A DNA stretch of 64,000 nt from a virus (taxonomy: Duplodnaviria; Caudoviricetes), in IMG/VR virus record IMGVR_UViG_3300040807_001487, positions 285 through 64,284 of that record, one strand, 5' to 3'. The notes under the pieces are model-generated. The model did no database searches, was not told the DNA's origin, and saw nothing but the letters and a program-made list of their open reading frames with translations. Of this stretch, positions 10,095-64,000 are shown one piece after another (position 1 is the stretch's first letter; every line of letters starts with the position of its first letter). A program made the position numbers and the translations under genes.

Positions 10095-10946
10095 ATGGAA
10101 AAATTATTAACAATAGGAATGGCAACATATGATGATTTCGACGGTGTGTACTTTTCGGTACAAGCGTTGAGGCTATATCATGAAATATGCAAATCTAATG
10201 AAGTGGAAATTGTTGTTGTTGATAACAACCCACAGGGCCAACATGGTAAATCTCTTAATTCTTTTAAAAATTGGGTTCCTAATATAAGGTACGTACCATT
10301 CACCAACAAGAAAAGTACAGCGGTAAGAAATGAAATATTCAAAAATGCAAACGGTAAATATACCATATCAATGGATTGCCATGTTTTATTTCTACCAAAT
10401 GCTATAGATTCTCTGTTAGAATATTATTCAAAGAACCCAGACTGTAAAAATTTAGTTCAAGGACCAATGATTTATGATAATCTCACTGAATACGCAACGC
10501 ATTTTAAGCCAACTTGGGGTGGTGATATGTATGGGCAGTGGGGAACGGACAAGGAAAAGTGTGAAAAGGGAGAACCTTTTGACATACCAATGATGGGACT
10601 TGGAACATTTTCTTGCGAAACCAAAAACTGGCTTGGGTTTAACGAAGCCTTTAAAGGTTTTGGTGGAGAAGAAGGTTATATACATGAAAAATTTAGGATC
10701 AACGGAGGAAGATCTTTGTGTCTACCATCGTTTAAGTGGATACATAGATTTGAAAGACCAAACGGTGTAAAATACCCACTGGCCTTAGAGGATAGAGTGT
10801 GGAATTATTTTGTTGGATGGCTAGAGCTACACAAAGATCCAGAACACGAAATGGTAAAACAAATATATTCGTGGTTCAGCAATAGACTGCCACCAACAGT
10901 AATAGATAAAATTTTCGAAGGTGCTAAACAGCAAACAAACCTATAA
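10095..10946 (+). CDS. GT-A glycosyltransferase resembling the polypeptide GalNAc-transferase catalytic domain
   Basis: VVVDN, DxH motif (MDCHV), and PMMGLGTFS...GFGGEE...GG...HRF. Confidence 0.8.
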   Translation: MEKLLTIGMATYDDFDGVYFSVQALRLYHEICKSNEVEIVVVDNNPQGQHGKSLNSFKNWVPNIRYVPFTNKKSTAVRNEIFKNANGKYTISMDCHVLFLPNAIDSLLEYYSKNPDCKNLVQGPMIYDNLTEYATHFKPTWGGDMYGQWGTDKEKCEKGEPFDIPMMGLGTFSCETKNWLGFNEAFKGFGGEEGYIHEKFRINGGRSLCLPSFKWIHRFERPNGVKYPLALEDRVWNYFVGWLELHKDPEHEMVKQIYSWFSNRLPPTVIDKIFEGAKQQTNL

Positions 10947-10960
10947 CAAAGGAGATACTG

Positions 10961-11812
10961 ATGCCCATTCCATCGCGAAAAGACGGCGAAGATAGAAAAG
11001 CCTTTTTGTCAAGATGTATGTCTGACAACAAAATGCAAGAAGAATACAAAGACAACAAACAAAGAGTTGCTGTTTGCTTAAGTAAAGCAAGCGAGGGGCT
11101 AGACGTAATTGGACAAACTGATTTTAAGTTTTACTTTGAAGAGTATGGATCAGAAGAAGAGTTAAATGAAAACAACTTTTATTGCCCAACAGAAGCAGAA
11201 TATGAAGACTTTGGTGAAGAAACAGAGGAATGGGATATTTCTGTTGCCAAGCCGGGACTTTGGGAAAACATTAGAAAGAAAAAAGAACGAGAAGGTAAAA
11301 ACTATAAGCCAGCAAAGAAGGGCGATCCAGATCGTCCAGACCCAGAAGCTTGGAAAAAGGCACAATCCCTTTGGGAGAAAACGGTATCTGAATATGAAGA
11401 AGGTCAGATGCAGAGAGAACAATTAATGAAGATGAATGAGCAACTTTCTGAAATAGCGAGTATGCTAGAAGGTGTAGAATTTGAAGATTGGACAAAGGAT
11501 ATGATTTCTAAATCAGAGATTTATATTCAGAATATTTATGACTTCGTAGAAGCTCACAAGGGTTATGCAGCAGAATATCAGGGTAGAAAAGTACAGCTTG
11601 GCAAACCATTTAGAACGCCAAAGGGTCCAAAGAAGTTTAGCGTCTACGTTAAGAATGATAAAGGTAACGTAGTAAAGGTAAACTTTGGTGATCCGAATAT
11701 GAAGATCAAGAAAAATATTCCAGAAAGAAGAAAGAGCTTTCGTGCCAGACATAATTGCGATAACCCCGGACCGCGATGGAAAGCAAGGTACTGGTCATGT
11801 CGAGCTTGGTAA
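10961..11812 (+). CDS. Modular protein built from short motifs that recur in large-phage proteins (possible internal head protein)
   Basis: Strong AAGGAG SD. Modules MPIPS..FLSRCM, KPGLWENIRKK, EEGQM..QL..W..ISKS..YI, and GKPFRTP..KKFSVYVK..VNFGD..RRKSFRARHNC..YWSC. Confidence 0.6.
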   Translation: MPIPSRKDGEDRKAFLSRCMSDNKMQEEYKDNKQRVAVCLSKASEGLDVIGQTDFKFYFEEYGSEEELNENNFYCPTEAEYEDFGEETEEWDISVAKPGLWENIRKKKEREGKNYKPAKKGDPDRPDPEAWKKAQSLWEKTVSEYEEGQMQREQLMKMNEQLSEIASMLEGVEFEDWTKDMISKSEIYIQNIYDFVEAHKGYAAEYQGRKVQLGKPFRTPKGPKKFSVYVKNDKGNVVKVNFGDPNMKIKKNIPERRKSFRARHNCDNPGPRWKARYWSCRAW

Positions 11813-12021
11813 AAAAAGGGAAAGAACACTTAACAGAAAATAAGATGACCTACTGTGAACATTGGCGGTTCGCAGTGGGTCATGGGTTGGGGTGCATTAA
11901 AGCCGGTTTATATCTATGTATACATGGATTTTTACCATGCTTCTATCGTCACGCTGGAAGCAAACTTGTTCATAGACTAGAAAAAGATTTTGTAGAGAGA
12001 GAAAATGAGCTTAATAAATAG
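11797..12021 (+). CDS. Small protein, DUF6356-like
   Basis: HLTENKMTYCEHWRFA...IHGFLP pattern; in-frame ATG at 11797. Confidence 0.55.
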   Translation: MSSLVKKGKEHLTENKMTYCEHWRFAVGHGLGCIKAGLYLCIHGFLPCFYRHAGSKLVHRLEKDFVERENELNK

Positions 12022-12694
12022 AGTAGATGCTATTATAGGTAAAAAAGATATTGACAAGGTTTCATACCTTGAAAATAAAGTTTCATACGACGATGAATTA
12101 TCTATCTTGGATATAGATATCAAAACCATTTTACCTGAACCCCCAAAAAATAGCAGTCAGAAAACAAGAAAAGAATTAGAGCTAATCTCTGAAATGACTG
12201 AATCTAGGACGAGAAAAGAATTAGACCTAATCTATATAGTAGATAACGAACCGCTTGAACTATTTGAAAACTTTCTTCAAGCAAAAAATTTGCCATTTCC
12301 ACACATAACTTTTATTGATTACTATAATGTGCTAGAACAATATATCTATGCACTAAAATATTATTTCAATAGAGCTAGACCAGAACAAGTAGCCCCATAT
12401 TACAATCTAGATATAGATATCTTGTACACGGATACTCATCAAACTCCATCTTATCCAAGTGGGCATACTATGTATTCTGAACTTGCCGCGCACATTGCGT
12501 CTGAGAAATATCCAGAATACAAAGAAGACTTTTTTGAGTTGTCAAACTATTGTGGACTTGGTAGAATACTACAGGGTGTACATTATCCATCTGACAACGC
12601 CGCTAGCAGATTAGCTGTAAGTAAATTGTATCCATTGATAAAGGATTATTTAAATGAGCAAAACGGAGCCAATAAAACGCCCACTGACAGATAA
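12005..12694 (+). CDS. PAP2/haloperoxidase-superfamily phosphatase (soluble)
   Basis: All three motifs present: K-x6-RP (KYYFNRARP), PSGH, and R-x5-H-x3-D (RILQGVHYPSD). Confidence 0.9.
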   Translation: MSLINRVDAIIGKKDIDKVSYLENKVSYDDELSILDIDIKTILPEPPKNSSQKTRKELELISEMTESRTRKELDLIYIVDNEPLELFENFLQAKNLPFPHITFIDYYNVLEQYIYALKYYFNRARPEQVAPYYNLDIDILYTDTHQTPSYPSGHTMYSELAAHIASEKYPEYKEDFFELSNYCGLGRILQGVHYPSDNAASRLAVSKLYPLIKDYLNEQNGANKTPTDR

Positions 12695-12737: not shown

Positions 12738-12742
12738 ACTAA

Positions 12743-13252
12743 ATGAAAACATTTCTAGTTGTAGGCTTGGAAAGCTCTTGCACAAAATTTGTTTCAAATT
12801 TGCTAGCATTAAATTTGAATATTATTGATAAACCATTAATACGTTGGGACGGAAATGCCCCAATTGAAAATAATCAGTACAAGGTAGTACATAGAAGTTT
12901 GCCACATTGGCAAAGAGAAAATTTTATTTCTTTAGAATATGCATCGTCATTTGATAATATAATAATTTGCACTAGAGATTTTTATTGCTCACTGATAAGT
13001 AAAAATAAGATACACCAGCTAGACAAAGAAAAAGCCAAGTTAGAGCATGAGCGAGGCGTCTTATTGCTAAAAGAAATATTTAATTCACTAGAAGATAGGG
13101 TTACAATATTTTCATATGAGTCATCATTCTTGCTTGGCGACTCCTATGTTAAAAAATTTTTACGCAAATTTCAAATCAATAACTATAACAAAGTGGAAAT
13201 TCTGGACATTAACAGAAAGTATTTAATAAATGAATCACATATTTCAAAATAA
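12743..13252 (+). CDS. Sulfotransferase-like P-loop protein
   Basis: N-terminal FLVVGLESSCTKFVSNLL resembles the PAPS-binding loop; also IIICTRD and SYE. Confidence 0.5.
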   Translation: MKTFLVVGLESSCTKFVSNLLALNLNIIDKPLIRWDGNAPIENNQYKVVHRSLPHWQRENFISLEYASSFDNIIICTRDFYCSLISKNKIHQLDKEKAKLEHERGVLLLKEIFNSLEDRVTIFSYESSFLLGDSYVKKFLRKFQINNYNKVEILDINRKYLINESHISK

Positions 13253-13793
13253 TAACTTTGGTGAAAATTGGTTTAGTTATCCTAAACTATATACTGATTT
13301 TGTTAAAATCGCTGCCGACAACTCAAAAATAGTGGAGGTAGGATGTTGGAAGGGAAAAAGTGCCGCCTACATGGCTGTAGAGATTATTAATTCAAAGAAA
13401 AAAATAGACTTCTATTGCGTTGATACTTGGCTGGGTTCAGATGAACATCAATCTGATAAATATGTAAAAACAAATTCCCTATACAATCTTTTTCTATCTA
13501 ACATTGAACCAGTAAAACATGTTATTCATCCAATTAGAAAAAATTCTATAGAAGCATCAAAAACATTTGAAGACTGTAGTTTAGATATAGTTTTTATAGA
13601 TGCTAACCATTCATACGAAGCCGTAAAAGAAGATATATTACATTGGATGCCAAAAATAAAGAAAAATGGAATAATGGCTGGACACGATTATCATCCAACT
13701 TGGTCTGGTGTAATTCAAGCCGTAAATGAAGTTATAGGTAAAGATAAAATTGAACAAAGAGATGGGTGCTGGGTTTTATGGAAAAAACAATAA
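13230..13793 (+). CDS. Class I SAM-dependent methyltransferase (Methyltransf_24-like, sugar O-methyltransferase type)
   Basis: VEVGCWKGKS, VDTW, IVFIDANHSYEAVKEDI and AGHDY. Confidence 0.85.
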   Translation: MNHIFQNNNFGENWFSYPKLYTDFVKIAADNSKIVEVGCWKGKSAAYMAVEIINSKKKIDFYCVDTWLGSDEHQSDKYVKTNSLYNLFLSNIEPVKHVIHPIRKNSIEASKTFEDCSLDIVFIDANHSYEAVKEDILHWMPKIKKNGIMAGHDYHPTWSGVIQAVNEVIGKDKIEQRDGCWVLWKKQ

Positions 13794-14500
13794 CTATATC
13801 CTTATATAATAGGCCAGATTATACCAGAAGAACACTTGAATATCTTTTCAGCTGCCATGGAGTTGAAGATTATGATGTTTCTATTTTTATCGAACCAGTT
13901 AGACAAGAAGTAATTAATATAGCAGTTGATTATTCAAAAAAATTCAAAAACATAAATGTGTTTGTTAATAAAATAAGATTAGGGTGTAGTCGGAATATAT
14001 TTCAATCATTGAGCTATGCATTTGATAAATTACACAGCAGCTTCAATATACACGTTGAAGACGACGTATTACTAGGAAAAGATGCTCTGAATTATTTTGA
14101 TTGGTGTAACCAAACTTATTACAAAGACGATGATGTATTTACTGTTTCATCTTACGAAAGATCACAAATAGAAGACAAAGATCAAACAAATTTAGTAAAA
14201 AGACATTGCTGGTTTATCCCTTGGGGCTGGGCAACTTGGTCTAACAGGTGGCAGGGTGGTTTTAAGAAAGAATTATTGGATAAAATTTCTCAAAAACAAT
14301 ACGAAAGCTGGGATTGTCACACTAATAAAATTAGAAATGGTAGATATGAGATTAGACCAGTAATTGCAAGATCTCAAAACATAGGAGCAGAGGGTGGAAT
14401 TCATGTTCCAAGCGCTGCATGGCATAAAAAAAATCAGTATAATGACTATTGGATAGAAAGTATTGGTGAATACGTAACACATTTTGAAGAATTAATTTGA
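13778..14500 (+). CDS. GT-A glycosyltransferase, GnT-I (GT13)-like
   Basis: YNRPDY, HVEDDV, FIPWGWATW, WD and EIRPVIARSQNIG; in-frame ATG at 13778. Confidence 0.75.
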   Translation: MEKTITISLYNRPDYTRRTLEYLFSCHGVEDYDVSIFIEPVRQEVINIAVDYSKKFKNINVFVNKIRLGCSRNIFQSLSYAFDKLHSSFNIHVEDDVLLGKDALNYFDWCNQTYYKDDDVFTVSSYERSQIEDKDQTNLVKRHCWFIPWGWATWSNRWQGGFKKELLDKISQKQYESWDCHTNKIRNGRYEIRPVIARSQNIGAEGGIHVPSAAWHKKNQYNDYWIESIGEYVTHFEELI

Positions 14501-18774: not shown

Positions 18775-19089
18775 ATGAATAATTGTTGTTTTAATGGATA
18801 TCTTGTTGAAAACCCCGTAGTAGAGTTAGTCAACGGCGTTGCTGTTGCTAACTTAATAGTCGTGGTATATAATTACAGAAAGACAAAAAGTACTGGAGAA
18901 AAGAGTAGAATACCAACATATTTGCAATGCGAAGCTTGGCATACTGGTGCTGAAATACTTGAAAGATTTGCAACAAAGGGTACAAAGATTACATTTAACG
19001 CCACAGCAAAAAATGTTTCTAAAGATGATGATCAAATTGTCTTCAGGATAAATGAATTTGATCTATGTCATCCAGAATTTGAGGACTAA
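18775..19089 (+). CDS. ssb: Short single-stranded DNA-binding protein (OB fold)
   Basis: MN...GYLVENP...CEAW..AE.L...TKG pattern; no long acidic DIPF tail. Confidence 0.75.
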   Translation: MNNCCFNGYLVENPVVELVNGVAVANLIVVVYNYRKTKSTGEKSRIPTYLQCEAWHTGAEILERFATKGTKITFNATAKNVSKDDDQIVFRINEFDLCHPEFED

Positions 19090-19090
19090 A

Positions 19091-20749
19091 ATGAGAAAGA
19101 AAAGAATACTATTTTGCAGTGAGTCTACTTTTCTTAACACTGGCTATGCTACATATACCAGAGAAATATTAAATTATTTACATGGCACTGGCAAGTATGA
19201 AATAGCAGAACTTGGTAGTTATGGACATTCTGGTGACGAGAGGGCTGCAAATATACCTTGGAAATATTACGGCGTAATGCCGCATCCGTCGTCTCCACAA
19301 GATGTTCACAATAGATATAACTCAACTCCAACGAATCAGTTTGGTGAATTTGCTTTCGATGAAGTTTGTTTAGATTTTAAGCCAGATATTGTGTGTGATA
19401 TTAGAGACTTTTGGATGATGGAGCATCAGGAAAGATCTGTGTTTAGAGATTTTTTCAAATGGTGTATCATGCCAACTGTAGATGCATATCCACAAGCTAG
19501 GCAATGGATGTCAACTTACCAATCAGCAGATGCGTGTTTGAGTTATTCTGATTGGGCTGGAGAAGTCTTGAAAAAACAAAGCGGTGGTAGTATTAATTAT
19601 TTAGGTTCTTCTCCACCTTCAGCGCACGAAGCATATCAAATATTACCAAATAAAGATGAAATAAAAAAAGCATACGGCGTTCCAACTGGCAAAAAGATAA
19701 TTGGAACAGTTATGAGAAACCAAAGAAGAAAATTATACCCAGACTTGTTCAAAACATTCAGGCAATTTCTAGATTCCGTAGAAGACCCTAACAATTATTT
19801 ATTGTATTGCCACACAAGCTATCCAGATATGGGCTGGGACATACCAGAACTAATGAATCAGCACGGTATTTCTGCGCACGTTATGTTTACATATATGTGT
19901 CCTCATACACAGAAAGCTTTTTCATCTCTATTCAGGGGTGCAGTAACTCAATCGCCATTTACTGGTCAGTTTGGAGCTATGGTTTCTAACGTCAAGCTTG
20001 GAGCTTCATACGAACAGCTTTCAGAAATTATCAATATGTTTGATATATATATTCAGTACGCAAATTCTGAAGGGTTTGGCTTGCCACAGGTAGAAGCCGC
20101 CGCATGTGGAGTTCCAGTTATGTCAACAGACTATTCAGCTATGGAGTCTGTGATTCGACAACTCGGGGGAATCCCACTAAAACCAAAGGCTATGTATAAA
20201 GAATTAGAAACTGGTTGCTACAGGGCTGTTCCAGATAATGATCTAACAACTGAAGAGCTAATAGAATTCTTTAGTAAACCAGAACCAATAAGAAAAAAAC
20301 TTGGTTTTGAAATGAGGAAAAATTTTGAGAAGCACTTTCAGTGGAGTCAAAGCGGAAAAGTTTGGGAGGATTACTTTGACTCAGCAGAGGTATTGGACGA
20401 AAATATAACTTGGTATTCTCCACCTAGATATAGAAAACCAAAACCAAAAGAAAGCATAGATCCAAACCAAATGCCTCAAGAAAGTTTAGCAAGATGGTTA
20501 ATATTGGAAGTTTTATGTGATCCGTCTAAAGTTAATAGTTTTATGGAAGCTCGTTTAACAAGAGACTTAATGTATCAAACCACAACGTCTGCCACTGGTG
20601 GTATGTATTTCAATGAAAGCTCTGCCGCTTTTGATGGTAAAAATTCAAGAACACCATTTGATTTTGACAAAGCTTATGATCATTTTGTCAACCTTTGTAA
20701 TCGACACAACGCTTGGGAGCAAAGAAGAATTGAGGTGTGTAAAAAATGA
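19091..20749 (+). CDS. GT-B (GT4-like) glycosyltransferase
   Basis: TGYA N-terminal motif, RNQRRK and EGFGLPQVEAAACGVPV; ATG at 19091 behind GAGG. Confidence 0.88.
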   Translation: MRKKRILFCSESTFLNTGYATYTREILNYLHGTGKYEIAELGSYGHSGDERAANIPWKYYGVMPHPSSPQDVHNRYNSTPTNQFGEFAFDEVCLDFKPDIVCDIRDFWMMEHQERSVFRDFFKWCIMPTVDAYPQARQWMSTYQSADACLSYSDWAGEVLKKQSGGSINYLGSSPPSAHEAYQILPNKDEIKKAYGVPTGKKIIGTVMRNQRRKLYPDLFKTFRQFLDSVEDPNNYLLYCHTSYPDMGWDIPELMNQHGISAHVMFTYMCPHTQKAFSSLFRGAVTQSPFTGQFGAMVSNVKLGASYEQLSEIINMFDIYIQYANSEGFGLPQVEAAACGVPVMSTDYSAMESVIRQLGGIPLKPKAMYKELETGCYRAVPDNDLTTEELIEFFSKPEPIRKKLGFEMRKNFEKHFQWSQSGKVWEDYFDSAEVLDENITWYSPPRYRKPKPKESIDPNQMPQESLARWLILEVLCDPSKVNSFMEARLTRDLMYQTTTSATGGMYFNESSAAFDGKNSRTPFDFDKAYDHFVNLCNRHNAWEQRRIEVCKK

Positions 20750-21858
20750 ATATACTTTACATAGGTCATTTTAAAGAAGGAAGCGGCTGGTCACATGCAG
20801 CAATTAATAATGTTTTAGCACTAAATACAGTTGGGCAAAATGTTATCTGTAGAAATATTCAACTGACCAACTCCAATAAATTAACAAACGAGAAGGTCAT
20901 TGAATGTCTTAGCAAACCAATAAAAGATATAGATGTGTGTGTACAGCATGTTTTGCCACATCACTTTGTTGGTACTAGTATGTTCAAGAATATTGCTTAC
21001 TATGACGGCGAAATAAGCACCATCAAGCATTTACCTTGGTTCTATTCTTTGAGTTTGGCAGATAGTGTTTGGGTTGCATGTCAAACAAATAAAACCAATC
21101 TTGACAAAGATGGCCTAAAGAATGTCAAAGTAATACCGCACTGTTTTGATGTAAAAAAATATAACACGGAAAAAACAGTAGAAATGAACAATGGCACTAA
21201 GGGCCACTTTAAATTTTACACTATTTCTGACCTAAACGACAGAAAGAATTTAGAATCTATCATTAAATGTTTTCATAGCGAATTCAAATCTTATGAGCCA
21301 GTAGAGCTAGTATTAAAACTTAATCAGATAAACGTTCCGGCGAACGTAACAAGAAACGTCATAGCAGAAAAAATTAACAACATAAAACAGCGGCTTAGAA
21401 TATATCCAGACATGAACTCTTACAAAAATGAAATTGTAATGTGCGATTATTTGAGCAATGAAGACATGATTAATCTTCATAAGTCGTGCGATTGTTTTAT
21501 TCTACCTTCTCACGGGGAAGGATTTTCAATGCCATCTTTTGAAGCTATGTGTTACGGAAACACTCCGATATGTAGCAACGATGGTGGCCCTAAAGATTTT
21601 ATAGACCAACACAACAAAGACACTGGGTATCTTGTTGACGGAGTGTACGATGTGTGCGATAGTTCAAACGCAGCGTTTAAAGACATAAATACCGGACTTG
21701 AGGAATGGTTTCACCCAAGCGAATCTGATATTAAAAATGCTATGAGATTCTATTACGAGAATAGAACAAAAATTAACAGAGAGTCTGGCAAAATTGCAGC
21801 AGAAAAATTCAGTCTTGAAAATATTGGAAATCTAATGTTGGAGAAAATTAATGAGTAA
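20746..21858 (+). CDS. GT-B (GT4-like) glycosyltransferase
   Basis: SGWS, RKNL and LPSHGEGFSMPSFEAMCYG. Confidence 0.88.
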   Translation: MNILYIGHFKEGSGWSHAAINNVLALNTVGQNVICRNIQLTNSNKLTNEKVIECLSKPIKDIDVCVQHVLPHHFVGTSMFKNIAYYDGEISTIKHLPWFYSLSLADSVWVACQTNKTNLDKDGLKNVKVIPHCFDVKKYNTEKTVEMNNGTKGHFKFYTISDLNDRKNLESIIKCFHSEFKSYEPVELVLKLNQINVPANVTRNVIAEKINNIKQRLRIYPDMNSYKNEIVMCDYLSNEDMINLHKSCDCFILPSHGEGFSMPSFEAMCYGNTPICSNDGGPKDFIDQHNKDTGYLVDGVYDVCDSSNAAFKDINTGLEEWFHPSESDIKNAMRFYYENRTKINRESGKIAAEKFSLENIGNLMLEKINE

Positions 21859-22291
21859 CACGCAAACAAAGAATATATTCTCACTGTATGCAGATACAAA
21901 GATACCAATCTTAATAATGCCTCATGGGGAAGATTTTGATTTAGCTCTATGTGACCTTGGGTATGAAGTTTATAGAGTTAATATTGGAGAAGAATGGAAT
22001 CAAGAAATAAATAGACCAGAGAATCATTACATACTACCAATTGGTGAAATAAAAAAATGTATAAACTATGCAGCTTTCATAGTGCCTTGTCACAAATATG
22101 AACCAAAAATAGTACAAAGCATTTCAGATGGTCTTAATATACCAACAATACAGGTAGACGACATAGGGGCGATAAAAGATGGAGATCCAGTTCCATTCGG
22201 TTGGGCCAAAAACATAGAACCAAGCAATCCAGAATTTAAAAAATATTGGTCAGAGCTTTTAGAACAACATATATACGCGAGGTTTAAATGA
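21851..22291 (+). CDS. Hypothetical protein (glycan cluster)
   Basis: 146-aa coupled ORF. Confidence 0.6.
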   Translation: MSNTQTKNIFSLYADTKIPILIMPHGEDFDLALCDLGYEVYRVNIGEEWNQEINRPENHYILPIGEIKKCINYAAFIVPCHKYEPKIVQSISDGLNIPTIQVDDIGAIKDGDPVPFGWAKNIEPSNPEFKKYWSELLEQHIYARFK

Positions 22292-22701
22292 AAATTTTAA
22301 TTACAGAAAAGTTAGATAAAACTATAGACGGCTTCAAGGTTCTGCCAATTGTGCAATCTTGTGTCCAGCTTATAAATATTCCAAGAAATGCTTGTGAGTA
22401 TTTTGTGATAGACGAATGTATCGATCAAATAAAAGATAAAGATATACTGAAAGAAATCTATACAAAGATAAGAAAAGACGGAGTTATATCAGTAATTGGA
22501 AAAGATATTAATCTATTATGTCAAGCACTGACAACAAGAACGATAAATGAAGAACAATTTTCTGAATATGCTACGAACCAAAAACAATTGTGGTCATTAG
22601 ACAGAATTATTAATGAACTAAAGTTGTGTGGATTAACAATAATAAACTCAAGCATACAGGGTCTAAATTATGAAGTATCAGCAACACGGCAAAAAAATTA
22701 A
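22288..22701 (+). CDS. Hypothetical protein, possibly a truncated methyltransferase-fold protein
   Basis: LKEIYTKIRKDGVISV resembles the post-motif-IV segment of class I methyltransferases; no SAM loop visible. Confidence 0.35.
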   Translation: MKILITEKLDKTIDGFKVLPIVQSCVQLINIPRNACEYFVIDECIDQIKDKDILKEIYTKIRKDGVISVIGKDINLLCQALTTRTINEEQFSEYATNQKQLWSLDRIINELKLCGLTIINSSIQGLNYEVSATRQKN

Positions 22702-23383
22702 TACAAGTTGCCAAGATTGTGTCTTTGCTCTGTACGAAGAGAATACGCAAACTGGATGCGAATTTGACAAACTTAAAGAATATGATTTAATAGAAGCTTA
22801 TAACGAAAATGGAAATTTTTATGTTCTTGATGGTCTGTGTAATTTATTAAGACACAAAGAGTGGAATGGTGGACAAAAAGATATATCTAAATTAATGTCT
22901 GAGATATCTTTTGACTTCTTCGTAATTATTGATGGCTTTGCTCTTGATAGTATATCTCTAAAAAGAATAAATATAGAGTATAGATATAAAGACAAGTTTT
23001 CGTTCCACATAATTGGCCCACCGTCAAAGCAGAAGGATTTGCTAAAATTAAGAAAGAGGCTTGGGTGCGAAGCAACGATCAGTCCTTATAGCTCATATGT
23101 AAAACACAAGGTATTGTCAAACAAAAAATATTCTTACTTTACTCTCATTGATAATCCTAAAGCTGTTAATCTTAATCTTGGAGATTTCAATGACGAATAC
23201 TGCAAGGTTAAAACAAAACCAACTCATTTAGAATTTAAAGGGCTTGAGTATACATCTTGTTTGCTATATCATTTGGTTTCATACAATAATGGTGAGATGT
23301 TATTTGACAAAAATATGGATGAAATAAAAAAATATGCCAAATCCAGCGACCAAGAAAAAGAAACAGAAAATAAGAACAACTGA
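22670..23383 (+). CDS. Hypothetical protein with an N-terminal Cys cluster
   Basis: SCQDCVF...GC...LCN. Confidence 0.55.
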   Translation: MKYQQHGKKINTSCQDCVFALYEENTQTGCEFDKLKEYDLIEAYNENGNFYVLDGLCNLLRHKEWNGGQKDISKLMSEISFDFFVIIDGFALDSISLKRINIEYRYKDKFSFHIIGPPSKQKDLLKLRKRLGCEATISPYSSYVKHKVLSNKKYSYFTLIDNPKAVNLNLGDFNDEYCKVKTKPTHLEFKGLEYTSCLLYHLVSYNNGEMLFDKNMDEIKKYAKSSDQEKETENKNN

Positions 23384-24080
23384 AATAAAGAATAGAAGAA
23401 AAGCTATTAATGAAGAATTTACAACCTTCATTATCATTGCTGACTCTCCTATTTACAGAATGAAGTCTTACGGACCAGTTCCGTTAATAGAAATAAAAAA
23501 TAAGAAACTTATTGATTATCAGATAGAGGCGATCACCAAAACATACAAAAACTACGAGATTATTCTGTGTGTTGGATTTGAGTCAAACAAGGTTACTAAG
23601 TACATAAAATCAAAATATAGTAAGCACAACATAAGAATAATAGAAAATACAAACTATCAGGATACTAGCTCCTGTGAATCTTTAAGACTATCTCTAAACA
23701 ACACAACGAATGGCAAGGTGTTCATTATTGATGGTAATCTTTTTTTTAACTACAAGATATTAAAGCTTAAGAACAAAGAGGACAATATAGCATATGTTAC
23801 AGAAGGTCAGTCAAAAGACTTTGACATAGGAATAAATATTAATGAACATAAGTGTGCAGAATTCTTTTGCTTTGGGGCCAAACATAGCTGGTCAGAAATA
23901 TCATACTTGGGAGATATGCAAGCTGTTAGCAGCTTGAATAAAATATTATACAACGACACCTTCAAGCGAAAGTTTATATTTGAAGCTTTAAACGCGATTA
24001 TAGGTATGAATAAAATCAAGTTCACGGTTGTCAATCATAGCAATGAGATATGGAAAATCAACAAGCCAAGAGGAACATAG
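23334..24080 (+). CDS. Nucleotidyltransferase-like (LicC/MobA fold) protein with degenerate motifs
   Basis: IIIADSPIYRMKSYGPVPLI..LIDYQI, IILCVGF, IIENTNY and IIDGN align with the sugar/choline-phosphate nucleotidyltransferase pattern. Confidence 0.65.
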   Translation: MPNPATKKKKQKIRTTEIKNRRKAINEEFTTFIIIADSPIYRMKSYGPVPLIEIKNKKLIDYQIEAITKTYKNYEIILCVGFESNKVTKYIKSKYSKHNIRIIENTNYQDTSSCESLRLSLNNTTNGKVFIIDGNLFFNYKILKLKNKEDNIAYVTEGQSKDFDIGININEHKCAEFFCFGAKHSWSEISYLGDMQAVSSLNKILYNDTFKRKFIFEALNAIIGMNKIKFTVVNHSNEIWKINKPRGT

Positions 24081-24081
24081 A

Positions 24082-24912
24082 ATGAATATTTTAATAGATA
24101 ATTTTGTAACAAAAGAAGATACTCAGTGTCTATATCTCTATCATGAGCTAAAGAAGATGCAAGACGCGAATGTGTATTATTGGCCGAATAAAAATATTAG
24201 CACATATGATATTTTTGATGACACAAATCCTGATATATTTATATCTCATGTTGGCGCTATTAATTTTGAACTAGCCTCTTACCTTGATGATAATAAACAA
24301 AAAGACAAGTTGATAATTGTTTTGTCAACATATGGGGTAACTCCCGAATCTATAATCCAACTAGAACACCATGTAGAAAAAGAGCAAAAACTATTTCTTA
24401 TGCATGAAGGAAAATTAAACAGCAGAAAACTAAAGACCATCAAGGTTAATCAATGTGTAGACCCTAACTTGAAACAATTAAAATTTGAATACAGCAACAT
24501 TGATACTGGTTACTTTGTGAAGAGTAATTCAGACATAAAAGAAAAAAACGGATGCTATCATCATATATCTAACATAGCTGATAATGCAGACATTTGCTTA
24601 GAAGAGAAAAGTATGGGAAGTATGTATAATAATTACAAACGCATAATTTTTAAAAATCTAAGTCAGTTTAATCAGTCGTTCTTCGATGCTATATATTACG
24701 GCGGTGAGGTTTATTACACATCTGATGATAAATCTATTGATGACATAAGCGAAAAAATGTTTGGACAAGTATTAAACATAAATAATAAAAGCGTAGATTT
24801 TGATAGAGTAAAAAACATCGTCAAAGAAAAACATATGCCAAAGAACAGACTTAAAACTATAATGTCACAGTTACCAATAAATCAAAACTTATTCAACAAG
24901 GTGGATCAATGA
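24082..24912 (+). CDS. Hypothetical protein, possibly a degenerate GT-B fold
   Basis: ATG at 24082 behind GAGGA; PDIFI and FFDAIYYG segments, and a C-terminal HMPKNRLKTI as in some GT-B enzymes. Confidence 0.4.
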   Translation: MNILIDNFVTKEDTQCLYLYHELKKMQDANVYYWPNKNISTYDIFDDTNPDIFISHVGAINFELASYLDDNKQKDKLIIVLSTYGVTPESIIQLEHHVEKEQKLFLMHEGKLNSRKLKTIKVNQCVDPNLKQLKFEYSNIDTGYFVKSNSDIKEKNGCYHHISNIADNADICLEEKSMGSMYNNYKRIIFKNLSQFNQSFFDAIYYGGEVYYTSDDKSIDDISEKMFGQVLNINNKSVDFDRVKNIVKEKHMPKNRLKTIMSQLPINQNLFNKVDQ

Positions 24913-36089: not shown

Positions 36090-36749
36090 TTAAAATCCTC
36101 CACCGCCGCCACTGCTGCCGTTTTCATCAGATGGGGCTTCGTCAATATCTGTATTTGGATCTTGAGTAAATGCGCCGCTTGAAATACTTGTTTGAAATAC
36201 ATAATAATCAGAGTATGGATCTAAGTACTTTGTAGCTACTTTAAAGTTTTCTGCATAGTCTACTTTAATAACGCCAAAGCTTCCGGGAGCATAATGTATA
36301 TAAGGATTAAAAGCTGGGGTGTCGTAAAGACCCTTCGTGATAGCATTTTTTCTTGTTTCATTTGCATTTGATAAAGCGTCATTACTGTAAGGAAAAGAAA
36401 ATTCCTTTGGCTCTAAAAAAGAATTACTTTCTATATACTCAGAAAATGAATCACCAGAAGGAGAAATAATAGCGTCATTATTTAAGAGGCTATATTTATC
36501 TGTATCATGCTTCCAAGTTGATGCGTCTATGTGTACAGCTGGATCTGATGTTTTGTTTGTAAATTCTTGAAAATGTGATTCCCCAGAAGGATACAATACT
36601 GCGCTTACATACTCTTCTTGGTTTAGCGTTTCAGTAAAGTCATGCTTGTTGATAACTCTAGGGCCAGTATAGCCAGTACTAGTCCTATCAATGTCTTCAT
36701 ATTTGTTGAATTTATTTAACGAGTTTGGATCTGGAGGATTTCTTGCCAT
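36090..36749 (-). CDS. Hypothetical tail-module protein
   Basis: 219 aa; ends ...NGSSGGGGGF. Confidence 0.55.
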   Translation of the reverse strand: MARNPPDPNSLNKFNKYEDIDRTSTGYTGPRVINKHDFTETLNQEEYVSAVLYPSGESHFQEFTNKTSDPAVHIDASTWKHDTDKYSLLNNDAIISPSGDSFSEYIESNSFLEPKEFSFPYSNDALSNANETRKNAITKGLYDTPAFNPYIHYAPGSFGVIKVDYAENFKVATKYLDPYSDYYVFQTSISSGAFTQDPNTDIDEAPSDENGSSGGGGGF

Positions 36750-44500: not shown

Positions 44501-47500
44501 ATGGGTATGAACCAAGGAAATCATCAAGGCCGGGAACAATTCTACGCCCACAGCTTGCGCTTTCGTCAACCATGATACCAATAAAGGCTGGGAGATTATT
44601 ATTTCTAATAGCAGAATTCAGTGGATATATCTGATTAAATATATTTGTGACTTCTTGCTCTATTCTGCTACTTGCTACCGCAACATCCTCATCTCTTAAC
44701 AGTCTAGTTATTTCATAGCGATGAATAAAATCAGAATCATTTTCATATTCTTGGAATTCGTGGAATGGAACATTTTTGTTTGGCTCAAGAACGATTACAT
44801 CTACGTCAACTTGGAATGCTGGCTCGGAGAATAGGGCAAAGTAATCATTACGGTCTTTAATCAATGAACCCAAGATCTTTTTAGCAGAAACTATTTTATT
44901 GTTCACTATCTTGGTAAAACCAGAAAACTCGTCTGTAACAATAATCACTGCTACCTTAATTGGAGATGTTACTATTTGGTCGAACGTTCTGTCAAATGTA
45001 CCCCGTGGCGCACCAACAAGTACCATTTCTTTGCCAGAGGTTTCATCTACAGCAATATCTACTGCGTGTCCAAACTTTCGTCCGTAGTTACCAATATCCC
45101 ACTCTTTAACTGGCGAATTAACGCCTTGAATGTTCTTGTATGTTAGATTAAAGTAATCTCTATGGAAGCCAGATGGCAAAGTTAATATTTCTTCTAGGCT
45201 CCATCCAGATTTATCATCTTGATCAGACCAATCATACCCACTTGGTGCTGGCAATCTTCTGTATAAGAAAACTGCTCCAGATTTATCTAGCTGTTTTGTG
45301 TCTTCGTACAACGTGTATTCTGGCGCACCAATTGCTAGTAGATCACCACGCGTAACGATATCTTTACCATACTTTGCATGTAGCGCAAATGGGTCTTCAC
45401 TAAATAGTTTAATGCCGCTAAAGTTTACTTCTGAATTACTACCATATTCTACTGTGTCAATAACTCTTGGTAATTCAACTTCTTGGTTTGATCCAGCATA
45501 TCCCAACATATTAACAATATATGGATATGATGGAATAAGTCCACCGTACTTTCTTGCTCCATAATAATTCTTGTCGTAGCCAACATCAATATTTGTGTAC
45601 GTATCTTTAGCTCTGATTACGCCACCAGTATGGCAGTCATCTGAAGTCCAGTTTATCTCATGCGTGTTTATGTCTGGGTTGGTGCATAATCCAGTAACAT
45701 CACAGTCGCCATAACAAATCGTTACAACGCCTCGTATTTCATCATCAGAACTAACTGATAAATATTTATCATCTGTAACAACAACGGCAGAACCAATGTT
45801 TTCTCCGTTCCACTGAATAATTTGTTGCTGAGTATAACTTATATCAAATGCTGGATAATTAATTGTATAAAGATTGAGCGAAGCCTGTTCTGAGTTTGGT
45901 GGGATGGGTTCATAGAAATTTGTTAGATTAAACGTCTTAGCAGTTGCCGAAAATACGTCCCTCTTATATAGCATCAAATTCATAGCAGAAGAAGAAAGTC
46001 TACCGGAGTCAATAAAGTTCGCAACGTCTACTCTGAAATTAATAGAGTTGTCTATATTCTTCTTATTCCTAGTGCTACTAAACGATGTTAGCTTTAATGT
46101 ATCCTCATAAGATGGAACAACTTCGTCATTGTAAAGATTTAAGTTAAATAACTCTACTTCTCCACCGCCGATGGTACTTAAGAAGAATCCAAAGTCTCCA
46201 TCTGCTCCAAACAAAGTCTCGTTTTGGTATTGTCCAAAATTGCCAAAATTATCAACAGATTGATGACCAAGTGAATACAAGTTCATTTCTGCTTCTGGCC
46301 ACAGCCCACCAGAAGCAATAAGGTTCATGTCGCCTGACGCAACTTCTGGAAAATACCCATCAACAAAAAGTACTAAGCCTGAAGGGACTCCAACGCTAAC
46401 ATCCTGATGACCTAAAACATTTAGATTAAGATCACCAAGTACTGTATAATCTCCGCTTGTTGACAATAAAAGTTCTTGATTGGTAGACGGTAGATGTCTT
46501 AAGCAATCTTTAAGTCTAATTTCTGCTGCATGTATTCTGATCGTAGAATCAAACGCAGAACCAGATGGGTAAACCACATCATACTGCAAGAACATGTCAT
46601 TAATGTCTGAAGAATAATACTTATGATCAAACTCTTTGATGATATGCTCTTTGCTTGTGTTGAAAACTGACCAAGGTTCAGATTCATCAAGCAAACTATC
46701 TTTATTGAACAAGCTTGAGATTTTTGTAATACATCCACTTGGGGCTAAGTAGTGAATATCTCTGTTGATTAAGCCAAGAGACTTATCAGCGCCGTCATAT
46801 GACGGAACTAATGATTGAGCATATAGACTAACAATAAGTTTTGGTCCAACTTTGCCATCGTCCCAAACAATCCGATCATCTGTAATGTGTTCAATAACAC
46901 TATCAACACTAACAGCTTTTTCTGTAAAATTATAGCCTCTTGGTAAATTCTTCCTAATCCTTGGGGCGGCTGCGTAGAACTTGCCGGAAGTTTCTGGAAC
47001 ATCTTCTATATTAAATCTTAAGAAGTCATTTTCTATTTGCGTGTGATAAGCAAGACCGCTTGCGTTAAGCGTTGCTGGCATATCAATATCTGTTCTGGAG
47101 CTATATGGCAAACCATCATGTATTAGATGGTGTTCAATGAAGTCTTTATCGTTCCTGTAAGACAATCTATCAAAGTCATCATTGAAGTGACAATTCTTGA
47201 AAGCTCCAAGCTTCCAGTTATTAGAAATATCACTATCGATGTAATCCCAAAACTTATCTTTACTAGATCTACTATCGATCATTCTCATGCTAGAAAATAA
47301 ATCTTCAACTCCACCATATTCTTTTTTGTCAACAATTATATTACTTGACGTTATTGCTCTATCTGAAAATCCTAACTCAGTAATAAAGCCAGCAAATCCA
47401 ACGCCAGACCCAGAAGAGTATCCAACAGTAACATTTTGATCTGTAGTAATTTTTGTGAATGGCTCTGAAACGCCACGCAAAGTATTGGTATCAAAATTTG

Positions 47501-61660: not shown

Positions 61661-62139
61661 GAAGTTCGCTCCCAGAAACAGGCAAAATACCTCTCCTGCT
61701 TAAGACCCATTGGTATGTGTTCGCCAAAGCGGGTAAATCTCATTTCCTTAATATCCTTAATGCCCTTGTGGACAATTAATTGTTTGGCGCTAAGAACTGC
61801 TTGCAAGTCTGACATAAAACCTATAGTCTGAATAGAGCCGTTCGGAATATTGAGATTATTATCACCTACGCCTATCCACTCTTTAGCGTCCCAATATACT
61901 TTAAGTTTAATATCAGTTAGTGTTTCCACTTCTCTAATAGTCTTAGTCCCAATGTTGTAATCACCCTCTATGATTGTATTGTTAATAGAGTTGATAACTG
62001 GTAGATTATTATCGGGATATATAATTTCTTCAATTAGCTCAATTGAAACTAATTGACATATTACTCCAAATATATCAAATGTAGAGTCTATAACATCAAA
62101 ATATTTATCGAAAACAGATTGTGGAACACTAATAGGCAT
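61657..62139 (-). CDS. Putative head-closure/stopper protein
   Basis: 160 aa, beta-rich; position in the head-tail junction block. Confidence 0.45.
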   Translation of the reverse strand: MPISVPQSVFDKYFDVIDSTFDIFGVICQLVSIELIEEIIYPDNNLPVINSINNTIIEGDYNIGTKTIREVETLTDIKLKVYWDAKEWIGVGDNNLNIPNGSIQTIGFMSDLQAVLSAKQLIVHKGIKDIKEMRFTRFGEHIPMGLKQERYFACFWERTS

Positions 62140-62141
62140 TA

Positions 62142-64000
62142 TTAACTCCCATCAACAATGTTGATATTTTTGTTTTGAAGCGCAAAAAATGCGGTTAAAT
62201 ATTCTGGAGTTGGAGAAGTAACTGATGCTGGGCCAAAATTAACATCAGTACCTGCTAACATAAATGAAGCTGTTGAACTCCAATCTACACATGTTGCAAT
62301 AATATTTGTTTCATTAACACTTGTGTTTTTGCAAAAATTTCTCATCTTTTCACTAAGCGTAGGTGGTAAAATCCATCCTGCAAAATTCTGATTGAAAGAG
62401 GTAGCGTTATTAAACATTTCAGAACAATCATTTAAACTTCTAACGTTCCAAGAAGAAACTGAGTGATTAAATACTGAATTATTTTCAAACATGGATGCCA
62501 TATTCGTACAAGAAGCTGTATTCCAAGAACTTATATCTTGATTGAATACTGAATCTTTAAACATTCCAAGCATAGTTCTGGGAATTGCCGTATTCCAAGA
62601 ACTTATATCTTGATTGAAAAATTGATTTGAATCAAACATGTAATTTAAGTCTACAGCTGATGACATATCCCAGCTAGAAAGTGGCTGACTAAAAGCACAA
62701 TTACGGAATGTAGAATCAAAATTCCAACAACTAGAAACATCCCAAGAGCTTAAATCTTGATTATAGTTTGAATCACAGAAAGTATAAGCAAGTTCTTGTA
62801 TATTGCTAGTATCCCAAGTTGATAAGTCTTGAGTAAAAATTTGATTGCCACAGAACAAGAAACTTAAATCTGTAAACCAAGATGGAATTGTTGATGGGAC
62901 TGATTCTAAATATTTTAATTGATGATCATCATTTAAATATATATTTCTAATAGTAAGATCGTCTTCTGCAAGATCTACAAAAGAAGGAGTATTAATAGCG
63001 TAGCCCCAACTTATTATATTTTGATAATACAATGATTGATTTGGATAATTATGAGCTGATGATGTAATAGAACTTGTTAAATCTGTAACAAGATTAGATA
63101 AAGTAATATAGTTATTTGAAGATATATTAACTGTTATAAGTTCTTGAGCTACATTAAGTAAAGAGGCAGATATCCTGTTATTAATAAAATCAATAGTACC
63201 TTGTCTCGCGTTTGAAGTATCAAAGTCTTTACGCATGTATACAAATCCACCATTTTTCGTAATAGAACTACTAGCAGTTGAAAGATATCCACCATTTGGA
63301 TCTTGGAAAGAAACTGGTAAAGTTAAAAGTGGCTCCCAAGATAGATTGGCGGCTATAGTTTGATTTTTGCTTTGTGTATTGCCAGCTGAATCAGAACAAG
63401 TAATAAATACATTAGTGATATTAGAATCTTTGTAAGGGCCGTTATTTCTAAGATAAAGATTCATTTGGATAAGTGGCTTGTATACTTTATATACGTTGTA
63501 TGTAAGTCCTAAACTGCTAGCTGTAGCTTCATCAATTTCTTCAACATATTCTAATGCAGTAACAACTTTTTTAATATCATTATTAAATGAAAATGATGTT
63601 ACCTTAAATGAACCATCTGGCTCTGGATATAAATCTGGAGCTGGAGTTGTAGTGGTGGTTGTTTGTGAGGCAAAATTCGGTAATAATCCATTGTCAGAAG
63701 TTTGAAGGCTAAATGTTAGTATATTACCGTTTCCGGCAGAAGATTCTGTAAAAACTGTTATTCTATTGTCACTTTCTAAATATGAATAGGTTGGCCTTGT
63801 TGAATTACTATATAAAATTTCATCAAACGCGATACTAGTAATTGTAGGGATGACATTTTGAGTACTGCCTAAGACTTCGCTTAAAGGACCAAATTCGGAA
63901 GTGTCAAATCCATAAAATCTTGAATCACTTCGATTAAATAGAATAACATTTGATCCATCGTCTGAAACTCCAACCATATCCATGTTTCCGTTTAGTCTTA
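62142..64000 (-). CDS. BspA/DUF285-repeat surface protein (probably 5'-truncated by the window)
   Basis: Tandem FNQDISSWNT/MF repeats of about 24-25 aa and a TTTTTTPAP linker. The frame stays open from ATG 63983 to the window edge. Confidence 0.8.
   Translation of the reverse strand, partial: RLNGNMDMVGVSDDGSNVILFNRSDSRFYGFDTSEFGPLSEVLGSTQNVIPTITSIAFDEILYSNSTRPTYSYLESDNRITVFTESSAGNGNILTFSLQTSDNGLLPNFASQTTTTTTPAPDLYPEPDGSFKVTSFSFNNDIKKVVTALEYVEEIDEATASSLGLTYNVYKVYKPLIQMNLYLRNNGPYKDSNITNVFITCSDSAGNTQSKNQTIAANLSWEPLLTLPVSFQDPNGGYLSTASSSITKNGGFVYMRKDFDTSNARQGTIDFINNRISASLLNVAQELITVNISSNNYITLSNLVTDLTSSITSSAHNYPNQSLYYQNIISWGYAINTPSFVDLAEDDLTIRNIYLNDDHQLKYLESVPSTIPSWFTDLSFLFCGNQIFTQDLSTWDTSNIQELAYTFCDSNYNQDLSSWDVSSCWNFDSTFRNCAFSQPLSSWDMSSAVDLNYMFDSNQFFNQDISSWNTAIPRTMLGMFKDSVFNQDISSWNTASCTNMASMFENNSVFNHSVSSWNVRSLNDCSEMFNNATSFNQNFAGWILPPTLSEKMRNFCKNTSVNETNIIATCVDWSSTASFMLAGTDVNFGPASVTSPTPEYLTAFFALQNKNINIVDGS
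62518..62618. repeat. Exact 29-nt direct repeat within the DUF285 array
   Basis: GTATTCCAAGAACTTATATCTTGATTGAA at 62518-62546 and 62590-62618 (72-nt period). Confidence 0.9.

Follow-up and report, generated by a model that had tools for sequence, protein, structure and literature searches.

The window examined here is a 64,000-nucleotide stretch of tailed-phage DNA (Duplodnaviria; Caudoviricetes), bases 285-64284 of the 64,284-base IMG/VR record IMGVR_UViG_3300040807_001487, and its subject is a set of glycosyltransferases (GTs) and accessory enzymes headed by a soluble protein of 283 amino acids (aa) encoded at 10095-10946 (the 10095 protein). This protein resembles the GT27 family, the polypeptide N-acetylgalactosaminyltransferases (ppGalNAc-Ts). 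We give about even chances to a reading in which the phage runs a cytoplasmic mucin-type O-glycosylation of its own virion fibres. The first-pass annotation of this stretch had proposed that virion proteins are the target. Protein O-glycosylation of virion-arm proteins is indeed the best-supported reading because of the GT27 fold, the linkage of the family to poly-Thr genes, the Ser/Thr (S/T) tracts found in relatives and the negative searches of relatives for DNA-hydroxylation and lipid-carrier machinery, but the particular acceptors named in that annotation were not upheld.

In the mechanism that we propose, the soluble 10095 enzyme would transfer the first sugar from a nucleotide sugar onto Thr or Ser of mucin-like tracts, and the part of the structural arm nearest the head genes would encode the fibre or adhesin proteins bearing these tracts. 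Two conserved GT4s would extend the glycan, and a LicC/IspD-like nucleotidyltransferase would provide activated donor. In the window strain more sugars may be added by a GnT-I-like GT, and the glycan may be decorated by a methyltransferase together with a sulfotransferase-like protein. That the tracts are the acceptors and sit on the virion, which sugars are used and in what order the steps run are points that we infer.

The GT27-like enzyme and the conserved glycan block

The conserved layer of the system consists of the GT27-like enzyme, two GT4s, a nucleotidyltransferase and several open reading frames (ORFs); a second layer is strain-specific. The features of the conserved layer are listed here, with the evidence for each in brackets (G002, G130 and G135 are related viral genomes, described below).

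10095..10946, + strand: GT27-like (ppGalNAc-T-like) soluble GT-A glycosyltransferase, 283 aa, the proposed initiator (Pfam, AlphaFold2 model, structure searches)
19052..20749, likely start 19091, + strand: GT4 glycosyltransferase, 552-565 aa, conserved (Pfam Glycos_transf_1)
20746..21858, + strand: GT4 glycosyltransferase, 370 aa, conserved (Pfam Glycos_transf_1; phrog_2170)
21851..23383, + strand: three small conserved glycan-block ORFs of 146, 137 and 237 aa (homologues in the G002 and G130 block)
23334..24080, + strand: sugar/alcohol-phosphate nucleotidylyltransferase-like protein, conserved (weak NCBIfam and PDB matches)
24028..24912, + strand: conserved 294-aa glycan-block ORF (homologues in G002, G130 and G135 at 26-28% identity)

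Pfam found a single domain in the 10095 protein, Glycos_transf_2 (46 bits), and its sole match among PDB sequences under E 0.01 was ppGalNAc-T10 (2d7i, E 6e-4). The AlphaFold2 model, made from a 44-sequence alignment, had a mean pLDDT of 96.2. When this model was compared with the PDB by Foldseek, all 32 of the matches listed (to rank 49) were ppGalNAc-Ts, with E of 9e-16 to 5e-12 and TMq of 0.63-0.75. A Foldseek-independent search of 48,161 representatives gave GalNAc-T1 at Z 22.7 (262 aa, rmsd 3.2) and Toxoplasma TgGalNAc-T3 at Z 21.9, as against 18.2 for the next family, represented by RmlT; TarS (16.9), TarP (16.1), GnT-I (13.0) and SunS (12.9) followed. The ppGalNAc-T-like label given to this protein in the first-pass annotation thus withstood a structural check, and the modelled fold is closest to GT27. 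Hallmarks of GT27 are a DxH metal motif and a third His in the Gal/GalNAc-T (WGGE...) motif. In the 44-sequence alignment D94xH96, H217 and E192-E193 are invariant, and the alignment to T10 pairs MDCHV with LDSHC and FGGEEGY...WIHRF with WGGEQYE...VGHIY. Sequence identity to solved GT27 enzymes is 13-20%, and no transmembrane (TM)-like segment was seen in the protein. GT27 enzymes transfer GalNAc from UDP-GalNAc to Ser/Thr of peptides; the genomic linkage to poly-Thr ORFs set out below makes transfer of a sugar to such peptides a putative activity of this protein.

For the 10095 protein 1933 clusters of homologues were counted; identity is 61-93% among the 120 listed, and the contigs reach ~166 kb, with one of 323 kb. 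A cluster look-up for 8 of the homologues returned no informative names, and BFVD holds a single viral protein that is a close structural match to the model. A profile-free exhaustive search returned 1780 representative clusters, mostly multidomain; fusion partners in 26 multidomain relatives were other GT2/GT25 domains, methyltransferases, Sulfotransfer_2 and TPR, and a PqqD peptide-recognition domain, which ties the family to peptides, occurred in 3 of the 26. We took 80 viral loci around 10095 homologues, in which all window proteins were searched by tblastn, and a second sample of 80 loci picked via the neighbouring nuclease rather than via the GT. Among the nuclease-sampled loci with at least 1 kb of downstream DNA, the GT27-like gene was present in 63 of 69. 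Relatives retrieved at length were G001-G005 and G015, which amount to about four independent groups, G001 being almost identical to G004 and G002 close to G003. G002 is complete, at 166,604 bases with direct terminal repeats, and collinear with the window; in the distant relative G015 the GT domain lies within a 599-aa protein inside the structural arm.

The GT27-like gene, both GT4s and the nucleotidyltransferase are conserved in the lineage and located in the replication arm. Glycos_transf_1 (PF00534, cut-off 26.4) scored 49.3 bits for the 19052 protein, whose aligned start is the methionine of MRKK... at 19091, and 56.1 bits for the 20746 protein. The former, which has 150-200 extra residues, matched 3322 homologues at E <= 1e-5, with 65-96% identity among the 120 listed, and is kept in G130 and G131, both of them without the GT27-like gene; in the PDB it had a weak match to 4pqg (Gtf1, E 0.013) confined to the generic GT4 nucleotide-binding stretch. 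Homologues of the 20746 protein were found in G001-G005, G015, G130 and G135. The first of the three small ORFs (146 aa) has a full GT4 as its G002 counterpart and the second (137 aa) a counterpart with a weak Methyltransf_11 match, and an ESM Atlas search with the product of 22670-23383 returned nothing. The 23334 protein matched NCBIfam sugar-1-phosphate nucleotidylyltransferases weakly and under cut-off, and in the PDB LicC (E 2e-5) and IspD (E 1.5e-4), a weak LicC/IspD/GlmU-N resemblance; its homologues, at 31-44% identity, occur in every retrieved relative that covers the block. The 24028 ORF had no Pfam, PHROG or NCBIfam match. As no listed enzyme has a TM-like segment, the enzymes are soluble.

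The strain-specific layer varies from relative to relative. G002 has as extra genes two GT4s, a GT2, a GT32-like gene, an FkbM methyltransferase, Sulfotransfer_3, UDP-GlcNAc 2-epimerase and GDP-mannose 4,6-dehydratase. In G130 the GT27-like gene is missing, with DUF1501 genes in its place, and the GT set comprises two GT29-like genes, GT8, GT90, GT25, GT2, GT4 and a CAP59-like gene, together with a phosphomannomutase, a CMP-sugar-synthetase-like gene and a sulfotransferase. GT29 is the sialyltransferase family. The phosphomannomutase of G130 is of eukaryotic type, and its DUF1501 (sulfatase-like) genes number two at the GT27-like site and two more nearby (loci L455-L457, e.g. L456:5908-8489, L456:13274-14961 and L455:2516-8796). 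With GT27- and GT13-like enzymes in the window and GT29, GT90, GT32-like and GT8 in relatives, the description "Golgi-like" used in the first-pass annotation is a fair one.

Remote homologues in cultured phages point the same way as O-glycosylation of the virion. The 19052 GT4 has such homologues in Synechococcus phage S-CBS4, where the gene stands between portal and capsid and a methyltransferase gene is close by, and in Tetrasphaera phage TJE1, where nucleotidyltransferase, epimerase, methyltransferase and GT genes form a series that lies ~2 kb upstream of those for terminase. In Microbacterium phage Magritte a homologue of the GnT-I-like protein is grouped with a second GT and a UDP-glucose dehydrogenase, and the terminase and portal genes come just downstream.

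Threonine-rich tracts as candidate acceptors

Members of the GT27-like family recur next to threonine-rich coding sequence. An S/T tract (at least 60%) lay within 10 kb of the GT in 6 of the 80 GT-centred viral loci (L035, L039, L074, L075, L080 and L081, the last four being two near-identical pairs), and in L035, G054, G056 and G071 one or more poly-Thr ORFs are directly upstream of the GT on the same strand. The converse scan started from viral records picked solely for a run of 15 Thr codons. A GT match at E <= 1e-5 turned up in four of the 57 that were searched; in three it was strong (1.8e-90, 1.3e-58 and 8.7e-35) and at most 2.5 kb from the tract. In control records picked for 15 acidic codons the GT was found in 0 of 47.

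Bacterial homologues also have Thr tracts nearby. From 404 confirmed bacterial GT loci we kept 80, at ~50% identity and mostly from Alphaproteobacteria, Desulfobulbales, Arenicellales and Acidobacteriota. Of the 80, 29 contained a tract in which Thr makes up at least 50%, and in 20 of the 65 having at least 3 kb of upstream DNA a same-strand Thr tract lay within 3 kb upstream, with positions peaking at -1.0 to -1.2 kb from the GT match; a single same-strand Thr tract was downstream of the GT. The tract ORFs in 9 of 10 loci inspected encode peptides of 70-136 aa, sometimes in tandem, in which a leader of twin-arginine-like type (…RRxFLK…) and an AHA site are combined with a tail of poly-Thr, and are followed by a 600-870-aa protein with the GT as its C-terminal half. 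This arrangement, which recurs in many Alphaproteobacteria and other bacteria (L500, L501, L518, L527, L541, L553 and L561 among others), looks like a system for glycopeptides exported by the twin-arginine (Tat) route. From viral adjacency, the poly-Thr scan and the bacterial upstream tracts combined, a Thr-rich polypeptide is the most likely acceptor class of the GT27-like family.

Such polypeptides are present in the lineage of the window. All six relatives retrieved at length (G001-G005 and G015) have (TS)n, (TTTTVAP)n or poly-T tracts in structural-strand ORFs of 322 to 3690 aa. In G002, for example, a 322-aa ORF has a 126-residue (TS)n/(TG) tract and a 1039-aa ORF has three such tracts. 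They lie between tail-proximal and head genes in G001-G005 and among tail genes in G015, and the neighbours of the G002 tract ORFs match tail-fibre, tail-spike/virion-protein, head and cement families (PHROGs). Some tract ORFs also have RCC1-propeller or FGE/C-lectin-like domains, which are typical of adhesins. An independent structural-arm sample, taken via the homologue of window gene 61657-62139, gave 27 loci, 19 of them with at least 5 kb upstream. Same-strand tract ORFs were found upstream of this homologue in 8 of the 19, the closest relative (78% identity) having a (PTTTSG)n ORF, and no tract was found downstream, among the tail genes, in the 19. In 72 replication-arm loci (1.0 Mb) there were 0 tracts. 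The region upstream of the 61657-62139 homologue, which holds the mucin-like ORFs of relatives, is not conserved and is hypervariable. Our contig stops 1.8 kb into it. The co-occurrence of the GT set with S/T-rich putative virion proteins, which the first-pass annotation had put forward as a test, is seen in relatives, in 6 of 6, and it is there, outside the window, that the strongest acceptor candidates lie.

Three side observations concern these ORFs. In the mucin-like ORFs of G002 (L087:9820-14407) and their G001 and G003 counterparts, Cys-rich stretches separate the tracts. G002 and G003, though closely related, have tracts of different length, which suggests that repeats have expanded and contracted. 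An Mtd_N domain, the N-terminal domain of the major tropism determinant, is present in proteins encoded in G002 (L083:12227-13414) and G135 (L454:11023-12042); these proteins and the FGE/C-lectin-like tract ORF hint at diversity-generating or tropism-switching receptor-binding proteins.

Within the window, the structural arm has shorter motifs that had been put forward as acceptors:

36749..38506, - strand: tail-region protein with a P/S/T-rich C-terminal extension (…PTPSSSTTPEPITGQT) (motif present)
38508..50459, - strand: 3983-aa distal tail protein with a conserved SG motif (FG-GAP repeats)
62142..63983, - strand: DUF285/BspA-like protein with a TTTTTTPAP linker at aa 108, at the contig end (Pfam DUF285)
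36090-36749: SSGGGGGF C-terminus (motif present)
58615-58941: KSG C-terminus (motif present)

All four short motifs, and an excess of SG dipeptides in the 3983-aa protein, were there as annotated. Among the homologues compared, the PTPSSSTTPEP tail of the 36749-38506 protein is carried by the window's protein alone: the six (from G001-G005 and G135-G137) that share a conserved …W(T/A)Y… end stop at it, from which we take the tail to be an add-on and a possible acceptor. The protein with the TTTTTTPAP linker is a minor possible acceptor, and for KSG and SSGGGGGF we found nothing that backs such a role. A reading of the SG dipeptides as xylosylation-like acceptors was considered and dropped. The 3983-aa protein has 61 SG where shuffles give 27.7 (2.2x expectation, z 7.0) and only 22 GS, SG being its top enriched dipeptide, and all 7 of the homologous ORFs examined share the enrichment (z 3.3-10.1). 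Among homologues ~32% identical, conservation is 59-61% for the Ser of SG and 29-30% for other Ser, and the SG context is hydrophobic, PHI-x-[P/A]-S-G-PHI. Because of this context and the positional conservation we do not count SG as a glycosylation site; it is probably a structural turn in folded beta-rich domains rather than an exposed acceptor.

The strain-specific islet and the genome setting

Between the 10961 gene and DnaE lies an islet that is a hot spot in the lineage, holding 0-3 genes across 35 related loci. In relatives its contents are PAP2 (the commonest), ferritin-like, GIY-YIG, methyltransferase, cupin, DUF6356 and unassigned genes, and for this reason the idea of a dedicated glycan island was dropped. 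The window islet (11812-14497, + strand) has four genes, the largest load seen:

12005..12694, + strand: soluble PAP2 / class A acid-phosphatase-like protein (Pfam PAP2, 46.9 bits)
12743..13252, + strand: sulfotransferase-like small protein (ESM Atlas structural neighbours)
13230..13793, + strand: class I S-adenosylmethionine (SAM) methyltransferase (Pfam Methyltransf_24, 79.5 bits)
13766..14500 (ATG 13778), + strand: GnT-I / GT13-like GT-A glycosyltransferase, rare (Pfam GNT-I)

Every enzyme listed in the first-pass annotation was recovered at its position by Pfam, PDB or Atlas searches, and the family assignments are sound for the GTs, the methyltransferase and PAP2. The 13766 protein scored 30.3 bits with PF03071 GNT-I (cut-off 25.4), over profile positions 182-310 of 434, and matched POMGnT1 (E 3.7e-6, residues 10-226) and GnT-I (6e-4) in the PDB. 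It has an EDD triplet, the GT13 motif, within HVEDDVLL. This protein has only 15 homologue clusters; the GNT-I family was absent from the records of 20 further relatives, and a protein search with the window enzyme in the records of five closer relatives gave nothing. The 12743 protein had no Pfam, NCBIfam or PDB sequence match. The Atlas model neighbours were sulfotransferases at TM 0.69-0.78, with one feature match to a Sulfotransfer_3 cluster (score 0.94), and its predicted sulfotransferase role is a lead only. Genes for the sulfotransferase-like protein, the methyltransferase and the GnT-I-like protein were found in 0, 2 and 0 of the 80 GT-centred loci and in 0, 1 and 0 of the 80 nuclease-centred ones. 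The genes annotated for possible methylation, sulfation and GnT-I-like steps are present, but they are strain-specific and nearly absent from related loci. As for PAP2, the best PDB matches of the 12005 protein are soluble class A acid phosphatases (E 2.6e-10), and no TM segment was seen. Its membership of the glycan system, in which the first-pass annotation listed it, is doubtful because PAP2 stands alone in the same islet of relatives; the related idea that it clears PAP for the sulfotransferase was dropped, as relatives carry PAP2 without the other islet enzymes.

The genome around these genes falls into two arms:

1-27215, + strand: nucleotide and replication genes (Pfam)
27261-63983, - strand: tail genes, including a 1943-aa tape measure and the 3983-aa protein

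The + arm encodes dUTPase, PhoH, RecA, DnaB, primase, a deoxynucleoside-monophosphate (dNMP) kinase (T4-gp1-like), a PD-(D/E)XK nuclease, SSB and a DnaE split around an exonuclease and endonuclease VII. Capsid genes are outside the window, no tRNA was found by a scan of it, its guanine-plus-cytosine content is 34-41%, and CheckV put the completeness of the record at 40%. Across the 80 GT-centred loci, RecA, DnaB, primase, the nuclease, the 10961 protein, DnaE, SSB and both GT4s are syntenic. Megablast of 10000-24100 against deposited phages (50,697 records) gave 0 matches, and DnaE and RecA are at most ~35% identical to deposited phages. Since tblastn of the 10095 protein against the same records also gave 0 matches, no cultured phage in that collection belongs to the lineage. 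The lineage is one of uncultured aquatic siphoviruses with genomes of ~150-166 kb, of which the window represents 64 kb.

DnaE (Pol III alpha) is encoded as two ORFs, 14497-16071 and 17167-18726 (+ strand). Between them lie a DnaQ-like exonuclease (16061-16741), which is conserved in relatives, and an endonuclease VII gene (16695-17165), which occurs in 8 of the 80 related loci. The product of 10961-11812 (+ strand; phrog_7595) is a conserved 283-aa protein, encoded next after the GT in most relatives. Its N-terminal half is acidic, while its C-terminal domain is basic and contains Cys; it was considered as a partner of the GT and dropped, as it persists in G130 and G131 without the GT.

Alternative targets and known systems

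Several observations weigh against O-glycosylation of the virion. The profile of the 10095 family matched no GT27 entry among PDB sequences at E <= 0.01; what it did match was chondroitin synthase and, at E 1.6e-6, the wall-teichoic-acid GT TarP. NCBIfam gave the 10095 protein polysaccharide-GT matches only, far under cut-off. The GT27-like gene is missing from 6 of the 69 nuclease-sampled lineage loci, and in 5 of these 6 records no copy was found in the rest of the record sequence examined. The GT genes stand among replication genes in the arm opposite to the tracts, ~55-60 kb from them in the complete G002. The window has no S/T tract of at least 30 aa with at least 50% S+T, 11 of the 19 structural-arm loci have no tract within 10 kb, and the acceptors are taken from relatives at 30-78% protein identity. 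The difference between 4 of 57 poly-Thr records and 0 of 47 controls is not significant alone (one-sided Fisher ~0.09). Finally, the tracts could be bare spacers.

Some of these points would suit enzymes that remodel a host envelope glycan (lipopolysaccharide, capsule or teichoic-acid-like) or build a polysaccharide through the lipid-carrier machinery of the host, with the Thr-rich proteins unrelated. Enzymes of the GT2 and GT4 families typically serve in making envelope polysaccharides; besides the profile matches just given, RmlT, TarS and TarP are structural neighbours at Z 16-18, homologues bear the JGI label "glycosyltransferase involved in cell wall biosynthesis", the window has a PAP2 gene, and the hypervariable GT repertoire is like that of O-antigen or capsule loci. 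Against this, the initiating phosphoglycosyl transferases PF02397 and PF00953 were each found in 0 of 5 relatives with responsive controls, and three or more TM-like segments were seen in just two ORFs, the tape measure and one of 86 aa, which leaves no flippase, polymerase or ligase. All the enzymes are soluble, PAP2 being of the soluble acid-phosphatase type, and the phage looks lytic and large, with no integrase seen in the window. Nor would an envelope target account for the poly-Thr genes found next to members of the GT family. We hold this alternative, which the first-pass annotation had also raised, to be unlikely, and keep it as a rival. In a second alternative the GT27-like enzyme acts on Thr/Ser-rich targets other than the virion: small peptides, as with the poly-Thr peptides that carry Tat leaders in bacteria, or else proteins that are secreted or belong to the host. 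The bacterial partners are small exported peptides and not structural proteins, PqqD domains, typical of peptide-modifying enzymes, occur in some relatives, and the gene sits in the replication (early/middle) arm. Yet neither the window nor the 72 replication-arm loci have a small ORF with leader and poly-Thr or any S/T tract, and the only long tracts of the lineage are in large structural-arm ORFs; a non-virion target of this kind seems quite unlikely.

The first-pass annotation had named DNA bases as a further alternative. By this reading the GTs would hypermodify phage DNA with sugars to escape restriction. The GT genes do lie amid replication and nucleotide genes, including the T4-gp1-like dNMP kinase and dUTPase, and a preprint (bioRxiv 10.1101/2023.12.21.572611) describes phage GT-A and GT-B enzymes related to envelope enzymes that glycosylate 5-hydroxymethylcytosine. 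The known routes to such DNA sugars depend on a hydroxylated pyrimidine; a ThyA homologue produces it, or else a C5-methyltransferase together with a TET-like dioxygenase/5mYOX. We searched for these families in 5 relatives, 3 of them at least 94% complete. PF00303 (ThyA) and PF00145 (C5-methyltransferase) were each in 0 of 5, with responsive controls; PF12851 (TET/JBP) was also in 0 of 5, a result that is uninformative as its control was silent. By Pfam none of the three is in the window. Moreover, the at least seven GTs plus sulfo- and methyltransferases of G002 and G130 exceed any described DNA glycan. DNA as the target is accordingly a highly improbable alternative.

If O-glycosylation of the virion is the right reading, the closest known system in kind is the virion O-glycosylation of mycobacteriophages, and the closest enzyme family is GT27. 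Mycobacteriophages, Che8 among them, reportedly O-glycosylate their virion proteins, as Freeman and colleagues are said to have found. To our knowledge, experimental phage virion glycosylation is limited to a few mycobacteriophages. As in those phages, the proposal is that GTs encoded by the phage act in the cytoplasm on proteins of its own virion, and one tail protein of the window has a P/S/T-rich C-terminal add-on. Unlike theirs, the GT set of the window is a conserved lineage trait in the replication arm, a long way from the genes of the substrates presumed for it; as candidate acceptors there are long mucin-like tracts in fibre or adhesin ORFs rather than short C-terminal tags on capsid or tail tube; and the families are GT27-, GT13-, GT29- and GT90-like, with a hypervariable second, Golgi-like layer. 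Candidate S/T-rich acceptor stretches co-occur with phage GTs in relatives, and the window itself has only a 6-Thr linker and one P/S/T tail. A full-text literature search found nothing linking phages with ppGalNAc-T-like enzymes, or Thr-rich phage proteins with GTs. The "moraphage" of PMC12619734 belongs to another lineage, whose tail is contractile and which lacks a tape measure.

With the animal and protist ppGalNAc-Ts (GalNAc-T1, T2, T10 and Toxoplasma GalNAc-T3), which have the solved fold closest to the modelled GT-A domain of the 10095 protein, the family shares aligned DxH and WGGE...H motifs and a Thr-rich substrate linkage, here a genomic one. GT27 enzymes have a C-terminal ricin-type lectin domain and a type II membrane anchor. 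The 10095 protein, at 283 aa and cytoplasmic, lacks a ricin-type lectin domain, anchor and stem, and does not take a simple GT27 label. Like the autonomous glycosylation machinery of chloroviruses and mimivirus, the system would be a host-independent, cytoplasmic set of many soluble GTs encoded by the virus, with sugar-nucleotide enzymes and methyl- and sulfotransferases, and its repertoire varies from relative to relative; unlike that of those giant viruses it belongs to a tailed bacteriophage, and the proposed O-link is to Thr/Ser tracts. The bacterial GtfA/GtfB enzymes, which O-glycosylate serine-rich-repeat adhesins in the cytoplasm, are likewise soluble GT4s acting on long Ser/Thr repeats before export or assembly, but there is no accessory Sec system here and the likeness is limited to the generic GT4 nucleotide-binding stretch.

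A wider version of the virion reading seems rather unlikely to us as a whole. By it, an abundant, uncultured lineage of aquatic siphoviruses would have an autonomous, eukaryote-like mucin-type pathway in the cytoplasm: the GT27-like enzyme would initiate, interchangeable GT13-, GT29-, GT90-, GT32-, GT8- and GT4-type enzymes would extend, and sulfation and methylation would complete a strain-variable coat on mucin-like fibres. The same family would glycosylate Tat-exported poly-Thr peptides in many bacteria, and would be a large prokaryotic and viral sister group of the animal mucin initiators. If true, such a sister group would bear on the origin of the animal mucin-initiating enzymes. The main reading, if true, would by itself extend virion glycosylation to a very abundant environmental lineage (1933 and 3322 homologous clusters for two conserved GTs) with a much richer, Golgi-resembling enzyme set, and would offer a concrete enzyme-substrate pair, the soluble GT of 283 aa and peptides of (TS)n or poly-Thr. 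It could also explain how these phages tune adsorption, stability or stickiness in water, why the fibre region and the GT repertoire are both hypervariable, and how widely GT27-like chemistry occurs outside eukaryotes.

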